Assembly: GCA_934095965.1 (NCBI GenBank)
Contig: CAKOKR010000003.1
Span: forward strand, 1 to 52,903
Direction of reading: 5' to 3'
Origin: an uncultured Bacilli bacterium
GTDB taxonomy: Bacteria; Bacillota_I; Bacilli_A; RF39; UBA660
DNA length: 52,903 bases
Part shown: positions 7,829 through 20,620 of the stretch, in pieces
Layout of the letters: the number at the start of each line of letters is the position of its first letter
Position numbering within the stretch: position 1 is the stretch's first letter
Translations under genes and position numbers: made by a program
Notes under the pieces: generated by a model
The model's input: the letters and a program-made list of their open reading frames with translations, nothing else
What the model was told of the DNA's origin: nothing
Database searches by the model: none

Positions 7829-7921
7829 GATAAAATTTATTTTACAAATTTCCATTTGCCTGTCCTAATTAATATAGGAAAGAAAAGAATGATGCAATAA
7901 AAATTAATAAAATAAACAATC

Positions 7922-7953
7922 AAAAATGACTAGAGAGGAATCTAGCCATTTTT
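7922..7953. terminator. Bidirectional terminator; serves the minus-strand gene 8000-8317
   Basis: A-run, TGACTAGA-GAGGAA-TCTAGCCA hairpin, T-run. Its arms are an inverted copy of the 7804-7828 hairpin arms. Confidence 0.55.
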
Positions 7954-7999
7954 GAGTCATACAACTGTTTCGTAGGAATTATAAGATTTTTCGATTACT

Positions 8000-8317
8000 T
8001 TAAAGTTTTATAAACTCATCTAAGTTAAAATCATAGATAGAGATTATATCATCATTAAAGTTAATCTCAGTGAAATTATCCATAACATGATAATCAAGAT
8101 TATCAAGACTCAATTTTAATATTACTTCATATTGAGGAACCACATTCATTCTGCTACATTTAAGTGATGAGTCTTTTTCAGTATCAAAAAAGAATAACAA
8201 ATTTTTATCAGTAAGCATAATATTAACTAATAATTTTCTGTTTCCAAAACTAACTAAAACTTGTTCCTTTTCATTAATAGCATGTTCATTATCTTTTAAA
8301 AAATCATAATTATACAT
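8000..8317 (-). CDS. Hypothetical protein (105 aa)
   Basis: Intact ORF with its own downstream terminator. No recognisable motif. Confidence 0.4.
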   Translation of the reverse strand: MYNYDFLKDNEHAINEKEQVLVSFGNRKLLVNIMLTDKNLLFFFDTEKDSSLKCSRMNVVPQYEVILKLSLDNLDYHVMDNFTEINFNDDIISIYDFNLDEFIKL

Positions 8318-8399
8318 AACTCCACCTATCTAAATTATATAACAATAATATTCATATGTCTATATAATTATTATATTACTTTGTAAAATTTTACATGAA

Positions 8400-10340
8400 C
8401 TATTCACCACTCATTACATATTGTTCCGGGCTAACCCCAGGTTCTGATCCTTTAACAAAATAATATAAAGCAGTTTTACTATTTGTTTTTGGTACATTTC
8501 CAGTAACAGCATCTAATGGAATAGCAATAACATTTTTCGGTGTTTCATACCAATTATCTTTATCTTTTGTAGCATCTTCTATTACTTCTGCCCATATTTT
8601 TTTTGCTTGATTTCGAACACTTTTATCGCATTCTCTATTATCATCATAACCCATCCACATCATAACAAGAGCATCCGGATTATAACCAACAATCCAATAA
8701 TCTGTATTTGTTGAACCAGTTTTAATGGCATATTTATGTGTTAAACTTCCTGCAATATTAAGAGCTGTAGGTGTTGTATAATCTACAAAAGCATCATTTG
8801 TTGTACTAGTTAATGCTTCATTTAATATATAAGTATAATTTGGATTAATTACTAATTCTTTCTTATCTTCATGTTCATACAAAATATTACCATCTAAATC
8901 AGTTACTTTTCTAATAAAATATAAATCTTTTTTATAACCTCCGGTTGCAAAAGTGTTATAACCAGTTGCAAAATCAATTATATTTATTTCACTAGTACCT
9001 AAAGGAAGTGATGCAACACTTTGTAAAGACTCATTAATTCCAGCTCTTTTTGCAACATCAATCATTTTATCAACCCCCAAAAATAAATTAGTTTTAACAG
9101 CATAAATATTATCAGATAAACTTAAAGCAGCCTCCATAGTAATCTCTTTACTTGCATAAATATTTCCAGCATTAGATGGTGAATAAGTTTTGCCATTAGA
9201 TAAATTAAAAGTAGTTTCTTCACTTCTAAAAGTACTTGCCATAGTCATATTATTCTCAAGTGCAGCATAATACAAAAATGGTTTCATCGTCGACCCTACT
9301 TGTCTTTTACTTTTTAAAGCTCTGTTATATTGGCTCTTAGCATAATCTATTCCTCCAGTTAAAGCTCTAACTTCCCCAGTCTGTGGATTTACAACTACAC
9401 TAGCAACCTGTACCTCATCGTCATTTTTTTTAGCTAATATAGCATCTTCCATATTTTTTTGCATATCCATATCTAAACTAGTATATATTTTTAACCCACC
9501 AGAATTAATCAAAGATGTTGGTATTTCTTTTATATTATTAAGTTCATTTAATACAGCTTCTTGATAATACATAACCATTTGTAAATTATTTGTTTTATTT
9601 TGCCCATAAATATTTAATTTTTCTTTATATAGATTATTATAAGTACCCTCATCAATATAATTATTATTAAGCATAGACTTAGCAACAATTTTTGCTCTTT
9701 TTACTGCAGCATCATAATTACTAACAGGATTATAACCCGCTGGATTTTTAGGTATTCCTGCAAGCATAATAGCTTCCTCCAAAGAAAGTTCATTTGGTTT
9801 TTTATTAAAATAATAACTAGCAGCATTAACAATACCCATATTACCTTGCCCATAATTAATTGTATTTAAATAACCCTCTAAAATAGCATCTTTATCATAA
9901 TGTACTTCAAGTTCTAAAGTTAAAAATGCCTCATCTATCTTTCTTTTCCAAGTCTTATCAAAATCTAAATAAAGATTTTTAATATATTGCTGTGATATAG
10001 TTGAAGCACCTTGAACAATGGAACCTCTTTTAATATTAGTAACCATTGCTTTTGCAATTCTTAAATAATCAAACCCATGATGTTCATAAAAATTTTTATC
10101 TTCTACACTTACTACAGCATCAACTAAATAAGGACTTATATCACTTAAATTTGCCCATTCATTACTTCTAGAACCTTGATATAATAACTCATCTTTATTA
10201 TCATATATATATAAACTTCCACTTTTTTTTAAATCAAGTTTTGGACTCAAATAAGCATAAGTATATAAACCTATTAAAATTATTACAAAAGATATAAATA
10301 AAAATATCATTGATTTAAAACAAAATCTCATTATTTTCAA
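8400..10340 (-). CDS. Class A penicillin-binding protein (glycosyltransferase + transpeptidase)
   Basis: GT51 motifs EDKNFYEHHGFD and GASTISQQ. Transpeptidase motifs STMKP (SxxK), SLSDN (SxN) and KTGST (KTG). N-terminal TM anchor. Confidence 0.9.
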   Translation of the reverse strand: MKIMRFCFKSMIFLFISFVIILIGLYTYAYLSPKLDLKKSGSLYIYDNKDELLYQGSRSNEWANLSDISPYLVDAVVSVEDKNFYEHHGFDYLRIAKAMVTNIKRGSIVQGASTISQQYIKNLYLDFDKTWKRKIDEAFLTLELEVHYDKDAILEGYLNTINYGQGNMGIVNAASYYFNKKPNELSLEEAIMLAGIPKNPAGYNPVSNYDAAVKRAKIVAKSMLNNNYIDEGTYNNLYKEKLNIYGQNKTNNLQMVMYYQEAVLNELNNIKEIPTSLINSGGLKIYTSLDMDMQKNMEDAILAKKNDDEVQVASVVVNPQTGEVRALTGGIDYAKSQYNRALKSKRQVGSTMKPFLYYAALENNMTMASTFRSEETTFNLSNGKTYSPSNAGNIYASKEITMEAALSLSDNIYAVKTNLFLGVDKMIDVAKRAGINESLQSVASLPLGTSEINIIDFATGYNTFATGGYKKDLYFIRKVTDLDGNILYEHEDKKELVINPNYTYILNEALTSTTNDAFVDYTTPTALNIAGSLTHKYAIKTGSTNTDYWIVGYNPDALVMMWMGYDDNRECDKSVRNQAKKIWAEVIEDATKDKDNWYETPKNVIAIPLDAVTGNVPKTNSKTALYYFVKGSEPGVSPEQYVMSGE

Positions 10341-12913: not shown

Positions 12914-13978
12914 ATGTTTAATAGATTAGATGCAATCGAAGAAAAATATAATGAATTAACTACTAAATTAAGTGATCCAGAAGTATTAAGTAATTTTAAT
13001 CAAGTTAAAGAATTATCTAAAGAACATAGTGATTTAGAAGAAACTGTTAAAACATATCAAGCTTATAAACAAGCAAAAAATAATTTAGAAGAAGCAAAAA
13101 TGATGGTGGAAGACCCAGATTTAAAAGAAATTGCTTTGGAAGATGTTGAAAATTTAACAAAAGAAATAGATAGATTATATCATGAACTTGAAATATTACT
13201 AGTACCTAAAGATGAAAATGATGGTAAGAATGTAATAATGGAAATAAGAGGAGCTGCTGGAGGAGATGAAGCAAATATCTTTGCTGGTGACTTATTTAGA
13301 ATGTATTCTTATTACGCAGAAAAAAATGGCTGGAAAATTGAAGTTATTCACCAAATTGAAGGTACAAGTGGAGGTTTTTCCCAAATTGAATTCATGGTAA
13401 AAGGAGCTAATGTATATAGCAAATTAAAATATGAAAGTGGTTCTCATAGAGTTCAAAGAGTACCTGTAACAGAAACCCAAGGAAGAGTACATACATCAAC
13501 ATCAACTGTACTTGTTATGCCTGAAGTAGATACTGTAAATATTGATATTAAAGAAAGTGATTTAAAAATAGATGTATATCATTCAAGTGGTGCTGGTGGA
13601 CAATCAGTTAATACTGCCAATTCAGCAGTTCGTATAACTCATGTTCCAACAGGCGTAGTGGTAACTTGTCAAACAGAAAGAAGTCAACTACGTAATAAAG
13701 AAAGAGCAATGCAACTTCTTAAAATCAAAATAAATGATGAATTAATGCATGAACAAGAAAGTGCTATCGGAGCAACAAGAAAATCAAAAATAGGTTCCGG
13801 AGATCGTTCTGAAAAAATAAGAACATATAACTATCCACAAAATAGAGTAACTGATCATAGAATCAATTTCTCAACAATGTCTTTAGATAGAGTTATGGAT
13901 GGAGAATTAGAACCTGTTATTGAAGCGCTTATAAATGAAGATTTAAAATTAAAATTAGCTGGAATGTCTTTAGAATAA
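12914..13978 (+). CDS. prfA: Peptide chain release factor 1
   Basis: PVT tripeptide (RF1 PxT class) and the GGQ motif in SGAGGQSVN. Confidence 0.95.
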   Translation: MFNRLDAIEEKYNELTTKLSDPEVLSNFNQVKELSKEHSDLEETVKTYQAYKQAKNNLEEAKMMVEDPDLKEIALEDVENLTKEIDRLYHELEILLVPKDENDGKNVIMEIRGAAGGDEANIFAGDLFRMYSYYAEKNGWKIEVIHQIEGTSGGFSQIEFMVKGANVYSKLKYESGSHRVQRVPVTETQGRVHTSTSTVLVMPEVDTVNIDIKESDLKIDVYHSSGAGGQSVNTANSAVRITHVPTGVVVTCQTERSQLRNKERAMQLLKIKINDELMHEQESAIGATRKSKIGSGDRSEKIRTYNYPQNRVTDHRINFSTMSLDRVMDGELEPVIEALINEDLKLKLAGMSLE

Positions 13979-13991
13979 GTCCAGCTTTTTT
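13957..13991 (+). terminator. Putative terminator overlapping the prfA stop
   Basis: AGCTGGA ... TCCAGCT 7 bp stem with a 16 nt loop, followed by TTTTTT. Confidence 0.5.
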
Positions 13992-14010
13992 AGGTATAGA
14001 AATGTATTTT

Positions 14011-14562
14011 ATGAAAAGAAAACTATTAATAATAATTATATTGCTGTTATCAACAATAATACTAGTAAAATCAAATATGAATAAAGATATCAAATTTAAT
14101 TATCATCCAGTATTAAATATGTATGATATGTCTACTCCAGAAAAAGCAGTTGGTGCTGTAGATTATATTTTCGTAGCAAAAATTAATTCTATCAAAAAAA
14201 CTTTATATAGTGATTATGAACCATACACAGTGTACAACATAACTATATTAGAAAACATAAAAGGTAATTTATTAACAGATATAACATTAACTCAAATGGG
14301 AGGAATTTTCAAAAATAAAAAAGAATACATATTACCAAGTGATACCAAATTACTAAAACAAGGAAAAACTTATTTAATACTTGCATATGTACCAGAATAC
14401 AATGGGGATTTACAAATTAATAGCAATTATAACTACATAGAACTTAATGATTCTAAAGATGAATTAATAACAAGATATCAACAAGCATATGAAAATGAAG
14501 AAGTACCAGAACAAAAGAAAGATAGCTTTATATCAAAATATGATATTTCATTAAATCAATAA
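14011..14562 (+). CDS. Signal-anchored hypothetical protein
   Basis: N-terminal MKRKLLIIIILLLSTIILV hydrophobic segment. No known motif. The track start at 14002 is an alternative. Confidence 0.5.
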   Translation: MKRKLLIIIILLLSTIILVKSNMNKDIKFNYHPVLNMYDMSTPEKAVGAVDYIFVAKINSIKKTLYSDYEPYTVYNITILENIKGNLLTDITLTQMGGIFKNKKEYILPSDTKLLKQGKTYLILAYVPEYNGDLQINSNYNYIELNDSKDELITRYQQAYENEEVPEQKKDSFISKYDISLNQ

Positions 14563-14590
14563 ATATGTGTTAAGTAGCATCTCTGTTCTA

Positions 14591-14619
14591 TTGACTTTTC
14601 AAAATATATTCTGTATATT
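14591..14619 (+). promoter_or_regulatory. Sigma-A-type promoter for the AAA+/vWA module
   Basis: TTGACT, 17 nt spacer, TATATT, with TG upstream of the -10. Confidence 0.55.
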
Positions 14620-14640
14620 ATAGTTGGAGTGATGATAAAA

Positions 14641-16491
14641 ATGAATGATTTAGAAATTAATTTATTATCTATTGAACAAATATTTAGAGATGAAAAATAT
14701 ATATTTGACAGTTACGGATATGATATATCAAACACAGATTTATCTATTTTAACAGGTGCATATGTATATTTTGGTGCATTAGCACGTGGTTGGTATTGGA
14801 CTCAAAATATCAGCGGAAATGAAAAAATAGGTTGCATAAATAACAAAGGTGAAATGGTTCCTACTTCAAGTTTTCTTCGTAGAGGTACGATACGTCCAGT
14901 TCTATCATCTACTGAACTTTTAACAAATGGAACTTTAAAAAGAGATACTACAATAACTGGAGTAGATATCGTTGAATTTGGTGAATATCCTCAATATGCG
15001 GCACCATCAAGTATGCAACAAATACTAGAAACAGAATTTTCCAAAGGACTTAAAAAAACTGGAAATACTTATACATTCGATGGTAACAAAAATCCTGATT
15101 ATTATTATAAATTTATGCCAGTAACTTATGATGAATATGAGTTTGGTGAAAAAAAATATATTCGTATTAAAGCTCAAGCTTATAAAGATTGTTTTGAACT
15201 TTCAAATGGTATTAAGTATTTAAATGATAACCATGTCTGGGTTGAAGTTACTCCAGTTAAATGGCTAGTTGATAATAAAAATGGATTGTTAATATCAACG
15301 CGTGGGTTAGCTTCAGGTATAAGATATGCTGGAAATGGTGCACCAGACTTAAAATATAGTACATCTGAAATGAAAGAATATCTTGATAAATATATGTTAC
15401 ATGATTTAACACAAAATGTGGTATTCATTAAAGCAGATGATATGAATAAAGAAAGAGAATCAACAAATGTAAAAGTAAAAAGAAATTCATATGGATTATC
15501 ATTTGATAATGTCAGTGAAGAAGATATAATAAAAGGAGCTATTGAAAGTGGTGTAGCGGTATTTTTACATGGTCCATCATCCGAAGGTAAATCTGCCAGA
15601 GTAAAACAAATAGATCCAACATGTGAAATAATATACTTACGTAATGCATCTCCTGAAAGTTTAAATGGTAAAAGTGTTTATAATGCAAGTACCGGAGAAA
15701 TGATTGATGTTAAACCATCATGGCTTAAAAAACTTGAAGCTAAATGTGAACAAGAACCAGAAAGACTTCATGTATTATTTTTAGATGAAATAACAAATGC
15801 TTTGCCAAGTATCCAAGGTATAGCATTCAATATAGTTTTAGATAGAGAAGTAAATGGAATATGGAAATTACCAGATAATGCTAGAATTGTTGCTGCCGGA
15901 AATGACATGAAAGATTCTTTAGCAGCTAACCAATTAGCGGAACCTTTATTTAATAGATTTGCACATGTATATATCAAAACAACAACTGAAAGTTGGTTAA
16001 AGTGGGCAAGTGAAAATAATATTCATCCAGCAATTTATGCATATATTGCATATAAAAATGGTGAAACATTAAGAAGTAAATATGATGGTGAATTTCCAAA
16101 TGCAGATCCTAGAAAATGGGAAATGGCTTCAAAAATGCTTTATAAAACTCAAAATCCAAAGATGCTAAGAGCTCTAGTTGGTGAAGATATAACAAATGAA
16201 TTTGTAAAATTTTGTAATCAAAGAGTAATAACTCTAGATGATGTATTAAATGGAAACTATGATGAATTAGAAATAGCAGCACTAAACACTGCTGAAAGAT
16301 ATGCAACAACAATGGGATTATCTCGTGTAGATGAACAAAACTTAGAAAAAGTAATAAATTTTACAGAAATGTTAGGAAACGAATTTAAAGCAATTTTTTA
16401 TGCATTATGGACTCATGGTGATGAAAAAAGATTAGAAATAATAGCTGAAGCAAAACTTGCTGAAGCAGAAGTGGGAGGTAAAAGTCTATGA
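14641..16491 (+). CDS. AAA+ ATPase (MoxR/AAA_5-like) with an N-terminal FGEYPQ-motif domain of about 260 aa
   Basis: Walker A GPSSEGKS, Walker B HVLFLDE, sensor IVAAGND and arginine region PLFNRF. The N-terminal part has the motifs GWYWTQN, IRPVL, FGEYPQ and VKWLVDNKNGLLIS. ATG 14641 lies 11 nt after a GGAG RBS, and the track start is 14629. Confidence 0.75.
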   Translation: MNDLEINLLSIEQIFRDEKYIFDSYGYDISNTDLSILTGAYVYFGALARGWYWTQNISGNEKIGCINNKGEMVPTSSFLRRGTIRPVLSSTELLTNGTLKRDTTITGVDIVEFGEYPQYAAPSSMQQILETEFSKGLKKTGNTYTFDGNKNPDYYYKFMPVTYDEYEFGEKKYIRIKAQAYKDCFELSNGIKYLNDNHVWVEVTPVKWLVDNKNGLLISTRGLASGIRYAGNGAPDLKYSTSEMKEYLDKYMLHDLTQNVVFIKADDMNKERESTNVKVKRNSYGLSFDNVSEEDIIKGAIESGVAVFLHGPSSEGKSARVKQIDPTCEIIYLRNASPESLNGKSVYNASTGEMIDVKPSWLKKLEAKCEQEPERLHVLFLDEITNALPSIQGIAFNIVLDREVNGIWKLPDNARIVAAGNDMKDSLAANQLAEPLFNRFAHVYIKTTTESWLKWASENNIHPAIYAYIAYKNGETLRSKYDGEFPNADPRKWEMASKMLYKTQNPKMLRALVGEDITNEFVKFCNQRVITLDDVLNGNYDELEIAALNTAERYATTMGLSRVDEQNLEKVINFTEMLGNEFKAIFYALWTHGDEKRLEIIAEAKLAEAEVGGKSL

Positions 16492-16883
16492 CAGAAGATA
16501 AAAAAGAATTATTATTTTCATATATAAAAGCTAATGTAGCACCCATACTTGTGAACTTTATAACAAGTAAAGATGTTAAAAATACTATAGTGTTACCTGC
16601 ATCAATTTCATCAAATAAATTAAATGGTCACTATGAAGAAACAGAGTTTTTACCTCCAGAGTGGCTAAGAGAAATCCTAAACTCAAAAGATGCAAAAGTA
16701 TTAGTAATTGATAACATAGATTCTATCTCTAAAGAAGAACAACTAAAGTTTAGTGAACTTTTAGAACATAGAAAAATATCAACATTTAACCTACCAGATA
16801 ACTGTGTAATAATTGTTACTGCTAAAAATATAAATAAAGATACAATAAATGAAGAAATATTTTCATTACTAGCACGTATCTAA
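16488..16883 (+). CDS. Walker-A-less AAA-like paralog (131 aa)
   Basis: ATGA start/stop overlap with the ATPase, preceded by a GGGAGG RBS. KVLVIDNIDSISKEEQLKFSELLEHRKISTFNLPDNCVIIVTAKN aligns by eye with HVLFLDEITNALPSIQGIAFNIVLDREVNGIWKLPDNARIVAAGN of the upstream ATPase. No GxxxxGK[ST] motif, and DE is replaced by DN. Confidence 0.55.
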   Translation: MTEDKKELLFSYIKANVAPILVNFITSKDVKNTIVLPASISSNKLNGHYEETEFLPPEWLREILNSKDAKVLVIDNIDSISKEEQLKFSELLEHRKISTFNLPDNCVIIVTAKNINKDTINEEIFSLLARI

Positions 16884-16892
16884 GGATAAATT

Positions 16893-18173
16893 ATGAAATA
16901 TGATATTGAAGGATTAAAAAGAAAAATGCTTGTTAAGTATCCATTCTTTGGAAGTGTAGTTGCTAATGTTTCATATAAAGAAGATACTACTATAGAAACT
17001 GCATCAACTGATGGAAAAACAATCTATTATAATCCAAACTTTTTAGAGTCTCTTAATGTCTCTGAACAGACATTTATTTTTGCACATGAAGTTTGTCACA
17101 TAGCATTCAATCACATATTAAGAAGTGAAGGAAAAGATGAATACACCTGGAATATTGCAACTGATGGAGTTATCAACCAATTTTTAAAACTTGATGGATT
17201 AGAAATGGTCGAAGGTGGTGTTGATATTAAAGATGCAATTAACTATGATGCCGAAGAATTTTATGAAAAACTAATAAAAGAAAAAGAGCAACAACAAAAT
17301 GAACAAAGCAATAATGAAAAAACAAGTTCTGAAAATAACAAACAAAATAATCAAAGTAGTGATAAAAAACAACAAGCTGGACACGATTCACACAACATGT
17401 GGAAAGATGCTATAAAAAAATTTAAAGAAGAAACGTCTTTAACTGAACAAAAAAAACAAATCAAAGAAAAACAAGAACAAACTAAAAAAATGGGTGAAAA
17501 AGATTCATTCAAAGAAAATCTTGCTGAGAAAAAAAGAGAACTTGAAAAGTTAAAAAGAGAAATATTAAAAGAAGTATCACAAAGGGGTAAAACATCAAAT
17601 AGTGTTATTAGAACTATTAATGATATAGGTAAATCAAAACCAATAGTTGATTGGCGATACATTTTAAAAGAAGCAATAACTTATAATGCTGATTGGTCTT
17701 ATAAAAATGCGGAAATTGAAGATGGTGTTATATCTGCTAATCTAGAAGAACAACCTCATCCAGAAACAGAAATATTACTTGATACAAGTGGCTCAATCAG
17801 TGACTTCTTACTTCGTGGTTTCTTACGAGAATGTAAAAATATATTACATACTTCTAGATTAAAAGTAGGTTGTTTTGATACAAAATTTTATGGTTTTCAC
17901 GAAATAAGAACAGAGCAAGATATAGAAAACATGCAATTTGAAGGTGGCGGAGGAACTGACTTTAATATCGCAGTTAATTCATTTACTAAAAGAGTAGAAA
18001 ACAAAATAATATTTACTGATGGGCATGCTCAAATGCCTGATACTCCAATTGATGCTATATGGATAGTTTTTGGTTTTGAAAAAATAAGACCTAAAGGTGG
18101 CAAAGTAATATATATTTCGCCACAAGATTTAGATAAATTGTATACAAATGAACTTCAAGGAAGATCCAGATAA
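16893..18173 (+). CDS. Putative zinc metallopeptidase + vWA domain protein (DUF2201-type)
   Basis: N-terminal half has ASTDGKTIYYNP and FAHEVCHIAFNH (HExxH). A low-complexity K/E/Q linker follows. C-terminal half has the MIDAS-type motif LLDTSGSIS. Confidence 0.8.
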   Translation: MKYDIEGLKRKMLVKYPFFGSVVANVSYKEDTTIETASTDGKTIYYNPNFLESLNVSEQTFIFAHEVCHIAFNHILRSEGKDEYTWNIATDGVINQFLKLDGLEMVEGGVDIKDAINYDAEEFYEKLIKEKEQQQNEQSNNEKTSSENNKQNNQSSDKKQQAGHDSHNMWKDAIKKFKEETSLTEQKKQIKEKQEQTKKMGEKDSFKENLAEKKRELEKLKREILKEVSQRGKTSNSVIRTINDIGKSKPIVDWRYILKEAITYNADWSYKNAEIEDGVISANLEEQPHPETEILLDTSGSISDFLLRGFLRECKNILHTSRLKVGCFDTKFYGFHEIRTEQDIENMQFEGGGGTDFNIAVNSFTKRVENKIIFTDGHAQMPDTPIDAIWIVFGFEKIRPKGGKVIYISPQDLDKLYTNELQGRSR

Positions 18174-18186
18174 AGAAAGGAAAATA

Positions 18187-18906
18187 ATGAAACCAGATTA
18201 TATAAGTAAACCAGATTGGGACATATTAACAAGTAAATATTCTAAAGAAGAATTAAATAATTTATTATCTTCTGGGGTATCACCCCAGTACTTAATTGGT
18301 AATGTTGAATTTTTAAATACAACAATTACCATAGATAAAAGAGTATTAATACCAAGATTTGAAACAGAAAACTTAGTTGATAAAACAATAAGATATGCAT
18401 CTAACTTGTTTAATAAAACGATAAATATAATTGACTTAGGAACGGGTTCTGGATGTATTGCTATAGCACTTAAAAAAAATCTAGATGCAAACATAACAGC
18501 ATTAGATATCTCTAGTGATGCACTAGAAGTCGCAAAACAAAATGCTATACTTAATAACACAGATATTATATTTGTTAATCAAAGTATGACAGAACCTCTA
18601 AAGAATAACTATGATATAATTATATCAAACCCACCATATATTCCATATGATGGATATGTTGAACAAATAGTAAAGAATAATGAACCATCCCTTGCATTAT
18701 ATGCAAGGGATAATGGTCTATACTTCTACAAGTATATTTTAAATAATCATTTAAAAAACTTAAATAGGCCAGGGTTAATAGCATTTGAAATCGGAGATAA
18801 TCAAAGACAGTCTCTAGAACCTCTAGTAGACAAATTAAATCTAAAATATAGCTTTGAAAAAGATTTACAAGGTTTAGATAGATATTTATTTATATTTAAT
18901 GAATAA
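18187..18906 (+). CDS. prmC: Release factor glutamine methyltransferase PrmC (HemK)
   Basis: SAM motif DLGTGSGCIA and catalytic NPPY. ATG 18187 is preferred over the track start 18148, which overlaps the upstream gene. Confidence 0.9.
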   Translation: MKPDYISKPDWDILTSKYSKEELNNLLSSGVSPQYLIGNVEFLNTTITIDKRVLIPRFETENLVDKTIRYASNLFNKTINIIDLGTGSGCIAIALKKNLDANITALDISSDALEVAKQNAILNNTDIIFVNQSMTEPLKNNYDIIISNPPYIPYDGYVEQIVKNNEPSLALYARDNGLYFYKYILNNHLKNLNRPGLIAFEIGDNQRQSLEPLVDKLNLKYSFEKDLQGLDRYLFIFNE

Positions 18907-20103: not shown

Positions 20104-20173
20104 CACTTATTAACAACAATAAATAGTAAAATAATTGATATTGTGTTATAATCAAGAAAAGGAAGTGAGTACT

Positions 20174-20620
20174 ATGGATACAATGATGATTGCAATAATA
20201 GTTATAGCTGTATTAGCATGCTCAGTTATTATTTTTGTTATATTATCTATATTTAATCCAAAATTTCAAGGCAAAATGATGAGTAAACAAATAAAGTCAG
20301 TTAAACATATGATGGATTATAGTAAAGATGATTTAAAAGAATTAATGAAAACAACTGCTAAAACAGAGACTATAGCTGAAAAAGAGATACTTGATGAAAA
20401 TGAAGAAATAATGTCTAGCAACGAAAAAAGGAAAGCAAATATTAAAAAAGAAAGTATTGAAGTAACAGCTAGAGCTATAAAAGATGGATTAACAAGTAAT
20501 AAAATATATTGCAGATATTGTGGTACTTCCATAGAAAGTGACTCTAGATTTTGTAAAAATTGTGGTACTTCCATAGAAAGTGACTCTAGATTTTGTAAAA
20601 ATTGTGGTAAAGAACAATAA
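20174..20620 (+). CDS. Membrane-anchored zinc-ribbon protein with a duplicated CxxC unit
   Basis: ATG 20174 follows an AAAGGAAGTGAG RBS. N-terminal TM segment. The C-terminus is YCRYCGTSIESDSRFCKNCGTSIESDSRFCKNCGKEQ. Confidence 0.6.
   Translation: MDTMMIAIIVIAVLACSVIIFVILSIFNPKFQGKMMSKQIKSVKHMMDYSKDDLKELMKTTAKTETIAEKEILDENEEIMSSNEKRKANIKKESIEVTARAIKDGLTSNKIYCRYCGTSIESDSRFCKNCGTSIESDSRFCKNCGKEQ
20517..20609 (+). repeat. Perfect 42 bp tandem repeat, 2.2 copies, in frame
   Basis: ATTGTGGTACTTCCATAGAAAGTGACTCTAGATTTTGTAAAA occurs at 20517-20558 and 20559-20600, followed by the partial copy ATTGTGGTA. Confidence 0.95.

Follow-up and report, generated by a model that had tools for sequence, protein, structure and literature searches.

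A three-gene MoxR ATPase–peptidase cassette at the prfA–prmC junction of an uncultured Bacilli genome and the retroelement targeting its relatives

The genes prfA and prmC are held apart by 4.2 kb in a 52,903-nucleotide (nt) stretch of DNA from an uncultured Bacilli bacterium (contig CAKOKR010000003.1 of assembly GCA_934095965.1; hereafter the window), which raises the question of what the intervening genes are, how they came to lie there and what they do. Three genes occupy most of this space: an ATPase gene (14641–16491; alternative starts 14629 and 14632), a small gene encoding 131 amino acids (aa; 16488–16883) and a gene for a DUF2201 peptidase–von Willebrand factor A (vWA) protein (16893–18173), all on the + strand, like the flanking genes and the other features mapped between them. 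An earlier note, made from the letters alone, had proposed that they form a self-contained module with a possible sensor role; all the open reading frames (ORFs) and motifs that it named were recovered from the ORF list and by motif searches. Here, we report that in relatives the N-terminal ~260 residues of the ATPase are the target of a diversity-generating retroelement (DGR). With slightly better than even confidence, we read the whole as an acquired, DGR-linked recognition/proteolysis cassette with a role in biological conflict, of which the window carries a copy of fixed specificity.

Insertion site and components of the cassette

We compared the junction with the contigs carrying prfA orthologs at 90%, 86% and 82% identity. 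These relatives share with the window the gene order parB, penicillin-binding protein gene, 110-aa ORF, argS, 145-aa ORF, prfA, prmC, spoIIR, mntP, Zn-ribbon protein gene and murA, and in all three prmC follows prfA after 0–27 nt. Because prfA directly precedes prmC in three syntenic species, the 4.2-kb block (13979–18186) is a lineage-specific insertion inside the prfA–prmC operon, as the earlier note had proposed. The block appears to have been horizontally acquired, with the self-contained three-gene cassette as its core, and apart from the window it is only the two closest relatives, L007 and L005, that have the cassette at the prfA–prmC site. To the left, prfA, encoding release factor 1 (12914–13978; Pfam PCRF E = 2.2e-72, RF-1 E = 2.9e-40), ends in a hairpin with a T-run over its stop codon (13957–13991; 7 bp, ΔG −11.4 kcal/mol, z = −1.95). 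This hairpin had been noticed at the outset and is indeed present; however, the junction alignment places it also in the empty-site relatives L084 and L085, so it is ancestral rather than a product of the insertion, whose left boundary lies just 3′ of it. To the right, prmC (18187–18906; Pfam MTS/PrmA) begins at ATGAAACCAGATTATATAAGT, identical in the window and in empty-site orthologs. Neither direct nor inverted repeats were found at the insertion boundaries. Since prmC starts 13 nt past the stop codon of the DUF2201 gene, the last of the cassette, it is predicted to share a transcript with the cassette, and probably does. In the window organism, an essential-operon junction is split, and prmC most likely relies on transcription through a foreign module.

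Between prfA and the ATPase gene lies a signal-anchored ORF of 183 aa (14011–14562; alternative start 14002). It is conserved at 95% in L007, survives in L005 as a degraded 57-codon remnant (52%), is absent from all other cassette-bearing loci and belongs to no Pfam, PHROG or PADLOC family. It is lineage-specific cargo of the inserted block, outside the conserved cassette.

The window ATPase gene is 97% identical to that of Clostridium sp. CAG:609, a human-gut metagenome-assembled genome. Its product was modelled with AlphaFold2 (AF2; predicted local distance difference test score, pLDDT, 79.6), and Foldseek analysis of the C-terminal AAA+ half (residues ~291–616; 15511–16491) returned NorQ (9qh4 and related entries) and CbbQ2 (6l1q) as best matches, with probability 1.0 and a target template modelling (TM) score of ~0.62. 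This MoxR-class fold, together with a match of the C-terminal half to phrog_1297 at E = 1.4e-49, bears out the earlier AAA+ assignment. In searches against Pfam and NCBIfam, the window protein reached AAA models only below threshold (AAA_5, 14.9 bits; cut-off 22); AAA_5 was matched by 17 of 37 family members (best E = 3.1e-6), and a PDB sequence search with the window ATPase gave nothing useful. The protein carries Walker A GPSSEGKS (residues 311–318; 15571–15594), Walker B VLFLDE (residues 378–383; 15772–15789) and PLFNRF (15943–15960). K317 of Walker A does not vary across a 16-sequence alignment; D382 and E383 of Walker B are constant in six closer homologs, some distant homologs having a degenerate Walker B. 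The adjoining vWA partner with a metal ion-dependent adhesion site (MIDAS), a hallmark of MoxR ATPases, is encoded two genes downstream, in the DUF2201 gene with its DTSGS motif.

The small gene overlaps the ATPase gene in an ATGA stop/start (16488–16491), with a GGGAGG motif on its 5′ side (16473–16478). Residues 7–131 of its product align to ATPase residues 295–443 (hhalign probability 95.1%, E = 3.2e-8), in keeping with the first description of this gene as a Walker-A-less AAA paralog; the product lacks the P-loop and the arginine of NRF, and its Walker B reads DN instead of DE. The 131-aa protein is a paralog, catalytically dead, of the α/β core in the AAA+ module of the ATPase itself.

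The third gene encodes a zincin-like peptidase domain (DUF2201_N, PF13203; E = 8.6e-38, 130.9 bits vs a cut-off of 23.2), a K/E/Q-rich linker and a vWA-like domain (DUF2201, PF09967; E = 1.1e-12, 48.6 bits vs a cut-off of 26.4), both Pfam matches lying above threshold and confirming the peptidase–vWA prediction. The protein also matches phrog_1314 at E = 1.7e-64, and its peptidase region matches the minimal zincin selecase MJ1213 (PDB 4qhf, E = 0.0025). The peptidase motif reads HEVCH (17085–17099) and the MIDAS motif DTSGS (17781–17795); among 65 DUF2201 homologs, HExxH is kept in 60 and DxSxS in all. Our literature search found no experimental study of the DUF2201 peptidase–vWA family or of its phage homologs.

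Retroelement targeting, distribution and phage homologs

A reverse transcriptase (RT) of ~350 aa is encoded directly upstream of the ATPase in 17 loci, matching RVT_1 (E = 5.8e-18) and bearing the DGR-type motif LGNQSSQ ([LIV]GxxxSQ) together with YMDD. Before it stands a protein resembling bAvd (E = 1.4e-5, short of the gathering score), and between avd and the RT gene lies a template repeat (TR) of 80–100 nt, whose partner variable repeat (VR) falls at ATPase codons ~72–105. Eleven loci combine a full-length RT with a TR/VR pair that can be detected; of their 127 TR/VR mismatches, 119 fall at TR adenines, adenine making up ~30% of TR bases (binomial p = 5e-52). Among 77 population variants of a ~64%-identity group, the entropy peak was confined to residues 83–99, a hypervariable patch with up to eight residues per site set between invariant G, R and P scaffold positions. 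The upstream RT, Avd and TR, the adenine-specific mismatches and the hypervariable patch at the VR identify the N-terminal ~260 residues of the ATPase as the DGR target in these relatives. The guess of a sensor thereby gained unexpected support, the N-terminal fusion being a DGR-hypermutated binding domain in relatives of the window copy. Because the DGR rewrites a surface patch of ~25 residues in many relatives, the N-terminal domain is plausibly a recognition module under selection to change its specificity. In L001–L004, only 187 aa of the RT remain and the mismatches follow a mixed pattern, as an inactivated, decaying DGR would show.

The window ATPase's N-terminal domain (residues 1–262; 14641–15426) was modelled alone by AF2 with 37 homologs (pLDDT 92.5, predicted TM score 0.91). 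Its top match in the viral structure library BFVD was a DUF6273 protein, a weak hit (E = 0.027, probability 0.6), and Pfam DUF6273 (PF19789) was matched by 4 of the 37 family members (best E = 7.8e-6). Gut phage tentaclins and Faecalibacterium prophages are documented to carry DUF6273 as a DGR target of C-lectin-like type, its VR lying at the C-terminal end (PMC10743442; PMC11792537; bioRxiv 10.1101/2024.10.15.618418). When the halves of the homolog P0149 were swapped, coverage of the DUF6273 profile grew to 5–169 vs 126–169 in the native order, in one of four proteins and with no gain in score, a weak hint that the domain is a circularly permuted DUF6273 with the VR segment first. We therefore predict a DUF6273-like, ligand-binding domain, possibly permuted. 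In the model, the VR-equivalent residues 64–88 form a β-hairpin, a loop and a strand, the hairpin resembling the one described for tentaclins. The protein bearing this domain has no signal peptide and no transmembrane segment, and the ATPase with its N-terminal domain is predicted to be cytoplasmic.

Two further observations concern diversification. A protein of 162–177 aa with no Pfam match (cluster c8; L036 5293–5826, L023 5303–5791) precedes avd in six DGR-bearing cassettes and may be an extra DGR accessory factor. In L017, L028, L040–L042, L045 and L055, each cassette has two to five ATPase paralogs in tandem, their N-terminal domains diverged by 4–25%, and three copies in L045 are identical across the first 450 nt; such arrays may offer another route to diversity in place of the DGR, or may have arisen as artefacts of assembly.

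The window itself yielded none of this machinery: tblastn found no RT, Avd or c8 in the 52.9 kb, and no TR-like repeat was present. The position equivalent to the VR (GCINNKGEMVPTSSFLRRGTIRPVL, residues 64–88; 14830–14904), located by alignment to the VRs of L023, L036 and L001, has lost the GC-rich 3′ block of active VRs. No hypervariable patch was seen among 43 same-species variants, which share 86–100% identity with the window protein (42 at 94% or more) and include no listed truncations. The retroelement was either lost by the window copy or never part of it. Measured against L005 and L007, the ratio of nonsynonymous to synonymous substitution rates (dN/dS) was 0.14 for the AAA half, 0.25–0.44 for the ATPase N-half, 0.18–0.31 for the small gene and 0.22 for DUF2201, with prmC at 0.25 for comparison. 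All three cassette genes are under purifying selection in the window lineage. With dN/dS values comparable to that of prmC and an invariant patch, the window cassette is probably functional and of fixed specificity. Synonymous divergence between the window and L007 is 0.023 in the ATPase N-half and 0.176 in the C-half, a difference that suggests a recent recombination breakpoint inside the gene.

The architecture, which the earlier note had called non-standard, is no one-off but belongs to a large family. Searching 1.84 billion cluster representatives for homologs returned 336 clusters (50% identity) at E < 1e-30, many of them full-length with the N-terminal domain included. A locus scan of one genome per species, with a 6-sequence alignment as query, gave 75 distinct loci, mostly from uncultured gut Bacilli/'Tenericutes' and some from Clostridia (e.g., Zhenpiania hominis). 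When the ORFs of 80 loci were clustered, only three families recurred, the ATPase (80), DUF2201 (75) and the small protein (64), which supports the notion of a self-contained module. The cassette sits at >50 unrelated chromosomal sites, often between housekeeping genes; its 147 non-redundant flanking genes represent 194 Pfam families, none in more than four, and include housekeeping genes, integrases, IstB and Mob_Pre. Across diverse Firmicutes, the AAA half remains 74–86% identical and the N-half only 30–41%. In L036 and L024, the cassette lies within an integrative mobilizable element next to cdaA–ybbR that encodes a Mob_Pre relaxase, helix-turn-helix (HTH) regulators, a large serine recombinase and a Bro-N protein, and in L036 the DGR travels with the cassette inside that element.

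The cassette carries no recombinase of its own despite its many chromosomal sites. In the Clostridia-containing subclade (Zhenpiania hominis, Lentihominibacter), the ATPase gene is followed directly by DUF2201; loci without the small gene are L064, L066–L068, L070–L072, L074, L075, L077 and L079–L081. The existence of this subclade indicates that the dead AAA paralog is a clade-specific addition.

Homologs are also frequent in phages, with 473 phage records matched by the DUF2201 protein and 723 by the AAA half, many from N4-like (Schitoviridae) or jumbo phages. These phage and plasmid homologs share the AAA half only, at 22–31% identity, and have no N-terminal domain; plasmid genes annotated as 'MoxR family ATPase' are 24–30% identical. 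The fused form, with N-terminal domain and AAA module, occurred in 1 of 2.9 million viral contigs, and the possibility of the fused cassette being widespread among phages or plasmids was tested and rejected. In N4-like phages, the MoxR/DUF2201 pair lies among replication genes rather than structural ones. A MoxR plus metallopeptidase–vWA pair had been noted computationally in jumbo phages, with a proposed role as virion-assembly chaperone (Iyer et al, 2021; PMC7824862). In the N4-like Vibrio phage SBP1 (L006, 4314–7056), an HNH endonuclease gene lies between the MoxR and DUF2201 genes. PHROG 1314, which is the DUF2201 peptidase–vWA family, is labelled 'HNH endonuclease', probably a propagated mis-annotation.

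Proposed function and relation to known systems

Because the DGR hypermutates the head of the ATPase in relatives, the cassette is likely a programmable intracellular recognition/proteolysis system. In such a system, the N-terminal domain would capture a protein as its ligand, the most plausible source being an invading phage or another mobile element, and the AAA+ ring would work with the vWA/MIDAS partner as in other MoxR–vWA pairs (NorQ–NorD, CbbQ–CbbO). The dead paralog could modulate ring assembly or activity, and the HExxH zincin would cleave the target so captured or else an effector acting downstream. A conflict role is suggested by analogy with the DGR-diversified sensors of MoxR/vWA systems (PMC10907252; PMC7159879), and the DGR link and the patchy, mobile distribution favour it as well.

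How new is the arrangement? We found no description of the three-gene cassette in the searchable literature, and the earlier claim of an undescribed system holds for this variant; it does not extend to the MoxR/metallopeptidase–vWA pair (PMC7824862) or to DGR-linked MoxR/vWA systems (PMC7159879; PMC10907252), which had been described before. The cassette is best read as a variant of the latter, the 'ternary' (VMAP) conflict systems (Kaur et al, 2020, PMC7159879; Dore et al, 2024, PMC10907252). Both have a MoxR-class AAA+ ATPase encoded beside a vWA protein and a peptidase, a cytoplasmic component with a lectin-like binding domain that is hypermutated by a DGR, and a patchy, horizontally mobile distribution. 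They differ in where the variable domain sits, which is an N-terminal fusion to the MoxR ATPase in the cassette but the vWA protein or a separate C-lectin (CLec) target in VMAP systems. In the cassette, the peptidase is of zincin type and joined to the vWA domain in one protein (DUF2201), whereas VMAP systems have a trypsin- or caspase-type peptidase on the VMAP protein. A dead AAA+ paralog is the third component here, with no VMAP protein, and Pfam detected no VMAP-C domain, the defining feature of the ternary systems, in the window proteins. Hosts are small-genome gut Bacilli and Clostridia, as opposed to multicellular cyanobacteria, actinobacteria and purple sulfur bacteria, and the window copy, unlike the DGR-diversified VMAP systems, has no DGR. 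A system reported in 2017 likewise combines a DGR-variable lectin-like domain and an AAA ATPase in one polypeptide; the summary of it in PMC10907252 reports no DUF2201 partner.

Other comparisons concern single parts. The jumbo/N4-like phage pair (PMC7824862; PHROGs 1297 and 1314) has the same two families, adjacent and in the same order, but identity is only 22–33%, its ATPases have no N-terminal binding domain, and there is neither a dead AAA paralog nor a link to a DGR. The DUF6273 targets of phage DGRs (tentaclins, Mtd-like) have a homologous VR segment with the motif WW[TS]...G...RP[AV]L in a β-hairpin plus loops, and the same avd–TR–RT layout, DGR-less target copies being known in phages too. 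Those proteins, however, are extracellular, serving in receptor binding or decoration with immunoglobulin-like domains, whereas the cassette domain is predicted to be cytoplasmic, rides on an AAA+ motor and, on weak evidence, appears circularly permuted with the VR segment first. NorQ/NorD, CbbQ/CbbO and RavA/ViaA share the AAA+ fold and the adjoining vWA/MIDAS partner; unlike the cassette, they serve fixed metabolic clients, lie beside the client genes and have no peptidase domain, variable N-terminal domain or dead paralog.

The great majority of DGR targets are extracellular proteins or receptor-binding proteins of phages, with the variable region at the C terminus, and cellular targets are mostly membrane-anchored (PMC8144416). 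DGR-diversified cytoplasmic 'antigen sensors' have been proposed so far from large multicellular bacteria (PMC10907252); if our reading is correct, the idea extends to small-genome, unicellular gut Bacilli and Clostridia. The compact three-gene form, with the variable domain on the ATPase and an obvious protease effector, should be experimentally tractable. One DGR-neighbourhood supplement contains scattered occurrences of the DUF2201 Pfam families, without discussing them as a system (PMC10053308); the cassette gives a biological context to this peptidase–vWA family and its widespread phage homologs. It was the DGR-less copy in the window that led to this compact, widespread family of DGR-targeted sensor–ATPase–proteases in gut Firmicutes.

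Several points weigh against a conflict role. The cassette family has no experimental evidence for any member, and NorQ/NorD and CbbQ/CbbO, its nearest relatives of solved structure, act as maturation chaperones and not as immune proteins. Searches of the three cassette proteins against PADLOC-DB v2 found no significant match to a defence-system model, no E being better than 0.015, and known defence systems were not clearly enriched in the 147 flanking genes, many of which are housekeeping genes. The N-terminal domain model found no solved-fold match when compared with the PDB by Foldseek (best E = 0.05), C-lectin DGR targets included, and the window domain itself falls below the Pfam threshold for DUF6273. 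With its DGR absent, the window copy could also have a present role different from that of DGR-equipped relatives. A bolder version of the proposal, to which we give only tentative credence, is a programmable, hitherto unrecognised class of intracellular immune or conflict system in gut Firmicutes, in which a DGR-retargetable lectin-like receptor on a MoxR motor would catch proteins of invaders and pass them, or a signal for activation, to a vWA-tethered zincin under a dead-paralog regulator. Such a cassette would resemble an antibody-guided AAA+ protease, with the window copy as a fixed-specificity version embedded in, and co-expressed with, a translation-termination operon.

Three other explanations of the locus were weighed. 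If phages or mobile elements use these proteins for their own ends (host takeover, anti-defence, or assembly of particles or transfer complexes), the window copy would be a stranded remnant. The homologous pairs in several hundred phage records, the strong PHROG matches of the ATPase and DUF2201 proteins, the virion-assembly role proposed for the phage pair (PMC7824862) and the carriage of a DGR-bearing version as cargo of a mobilizable element all speak for this explanation, yet we judge it unlikely. Phage and plasmid homologs stop at the AAA half, the fused form being restricted to the single viral contig mentioned above, and the N4-like pair keeps company with replication and not structural genes. 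Moreover, most cassettes have no structural or transfer genes beside them, and the window genes remain under purifying selection at a chromosomal site with no element genes left.

Rather improbable, in our assessment, is a dedicated MoxR–vWA maturation chaperone for a host complex, with the peptidase as a processing step and the N-terminal domain as a fixed adaptor. The best structural matches are NorQ and CbbQ2, a vWA/MIDAS partner gene adjoins, and in the window lineage selection is purifying and the N-terminal domain invariant, all as a chaperone would have it. Syntenic sister species nevertheless do without the cassette, no client gene recurs near its >50 unrelated sites, and DGR hypermutation of the adaptor in relatives would make little sense for a fixed housekeeping client. 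A non-functional passenger, decaying after chance insertion, would account for the lost DGR, the decayed GC-rich end of the VR and the degradation of the neighbouring signal-anchored ORF in L005, but we consider it very improbable: the three ORFs are intact with every catalytic motif, dN/dS stays at 0.14–0.31, and the 43 strain variants, at 86–100% identity, show no listed truncation. The DGR-linked conflict cassette is thus the reading that we retain.

Other features around the junction

A TTGACT-17-TATATT sequence (14591–14619; 10 of 12 consensus matches) in the intergenic space 5′ of the ATPase gene had been taken for a promoter. The sequence is there, but it is statistically indistinguishable from background: this AT-rich stretch shows no excess of promoter-like sites over shuffled sequence (35 sites against an expected 50.7). 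Its intergenic position aside, the site is without statistical weight, and we refer to it as a putative promoter. The window, from a Firmicute, has ~27% GC, with no anomaly in GC content across the inserted block, and contains no tRNA genes.

Other insertions lie close by in related genomes. In L082 and L083, whose prfA is 90% identical, a different insertion between prmC and spoIIR (7895–10045) comprises a 115-aa ORF, an HTH protein with a faint Peptidase_U49 (Lit-like) match and a PemK toxin, so that the prfA–prmC–spoIIR stretch looks like an insertion hotspot of the clade. Between spoIIR and mntP, the CAG:609 reference (L007, 12746–14562) carries two additional ORFs (216 and 310 aa) missing from the window, adding to strain-level variability near the junction. 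Further downstream in the window, the Zn-ribbon protein (20135–20620) contains the motif CGTSIESDSRFCKNCG duplicated exactly in tandem.

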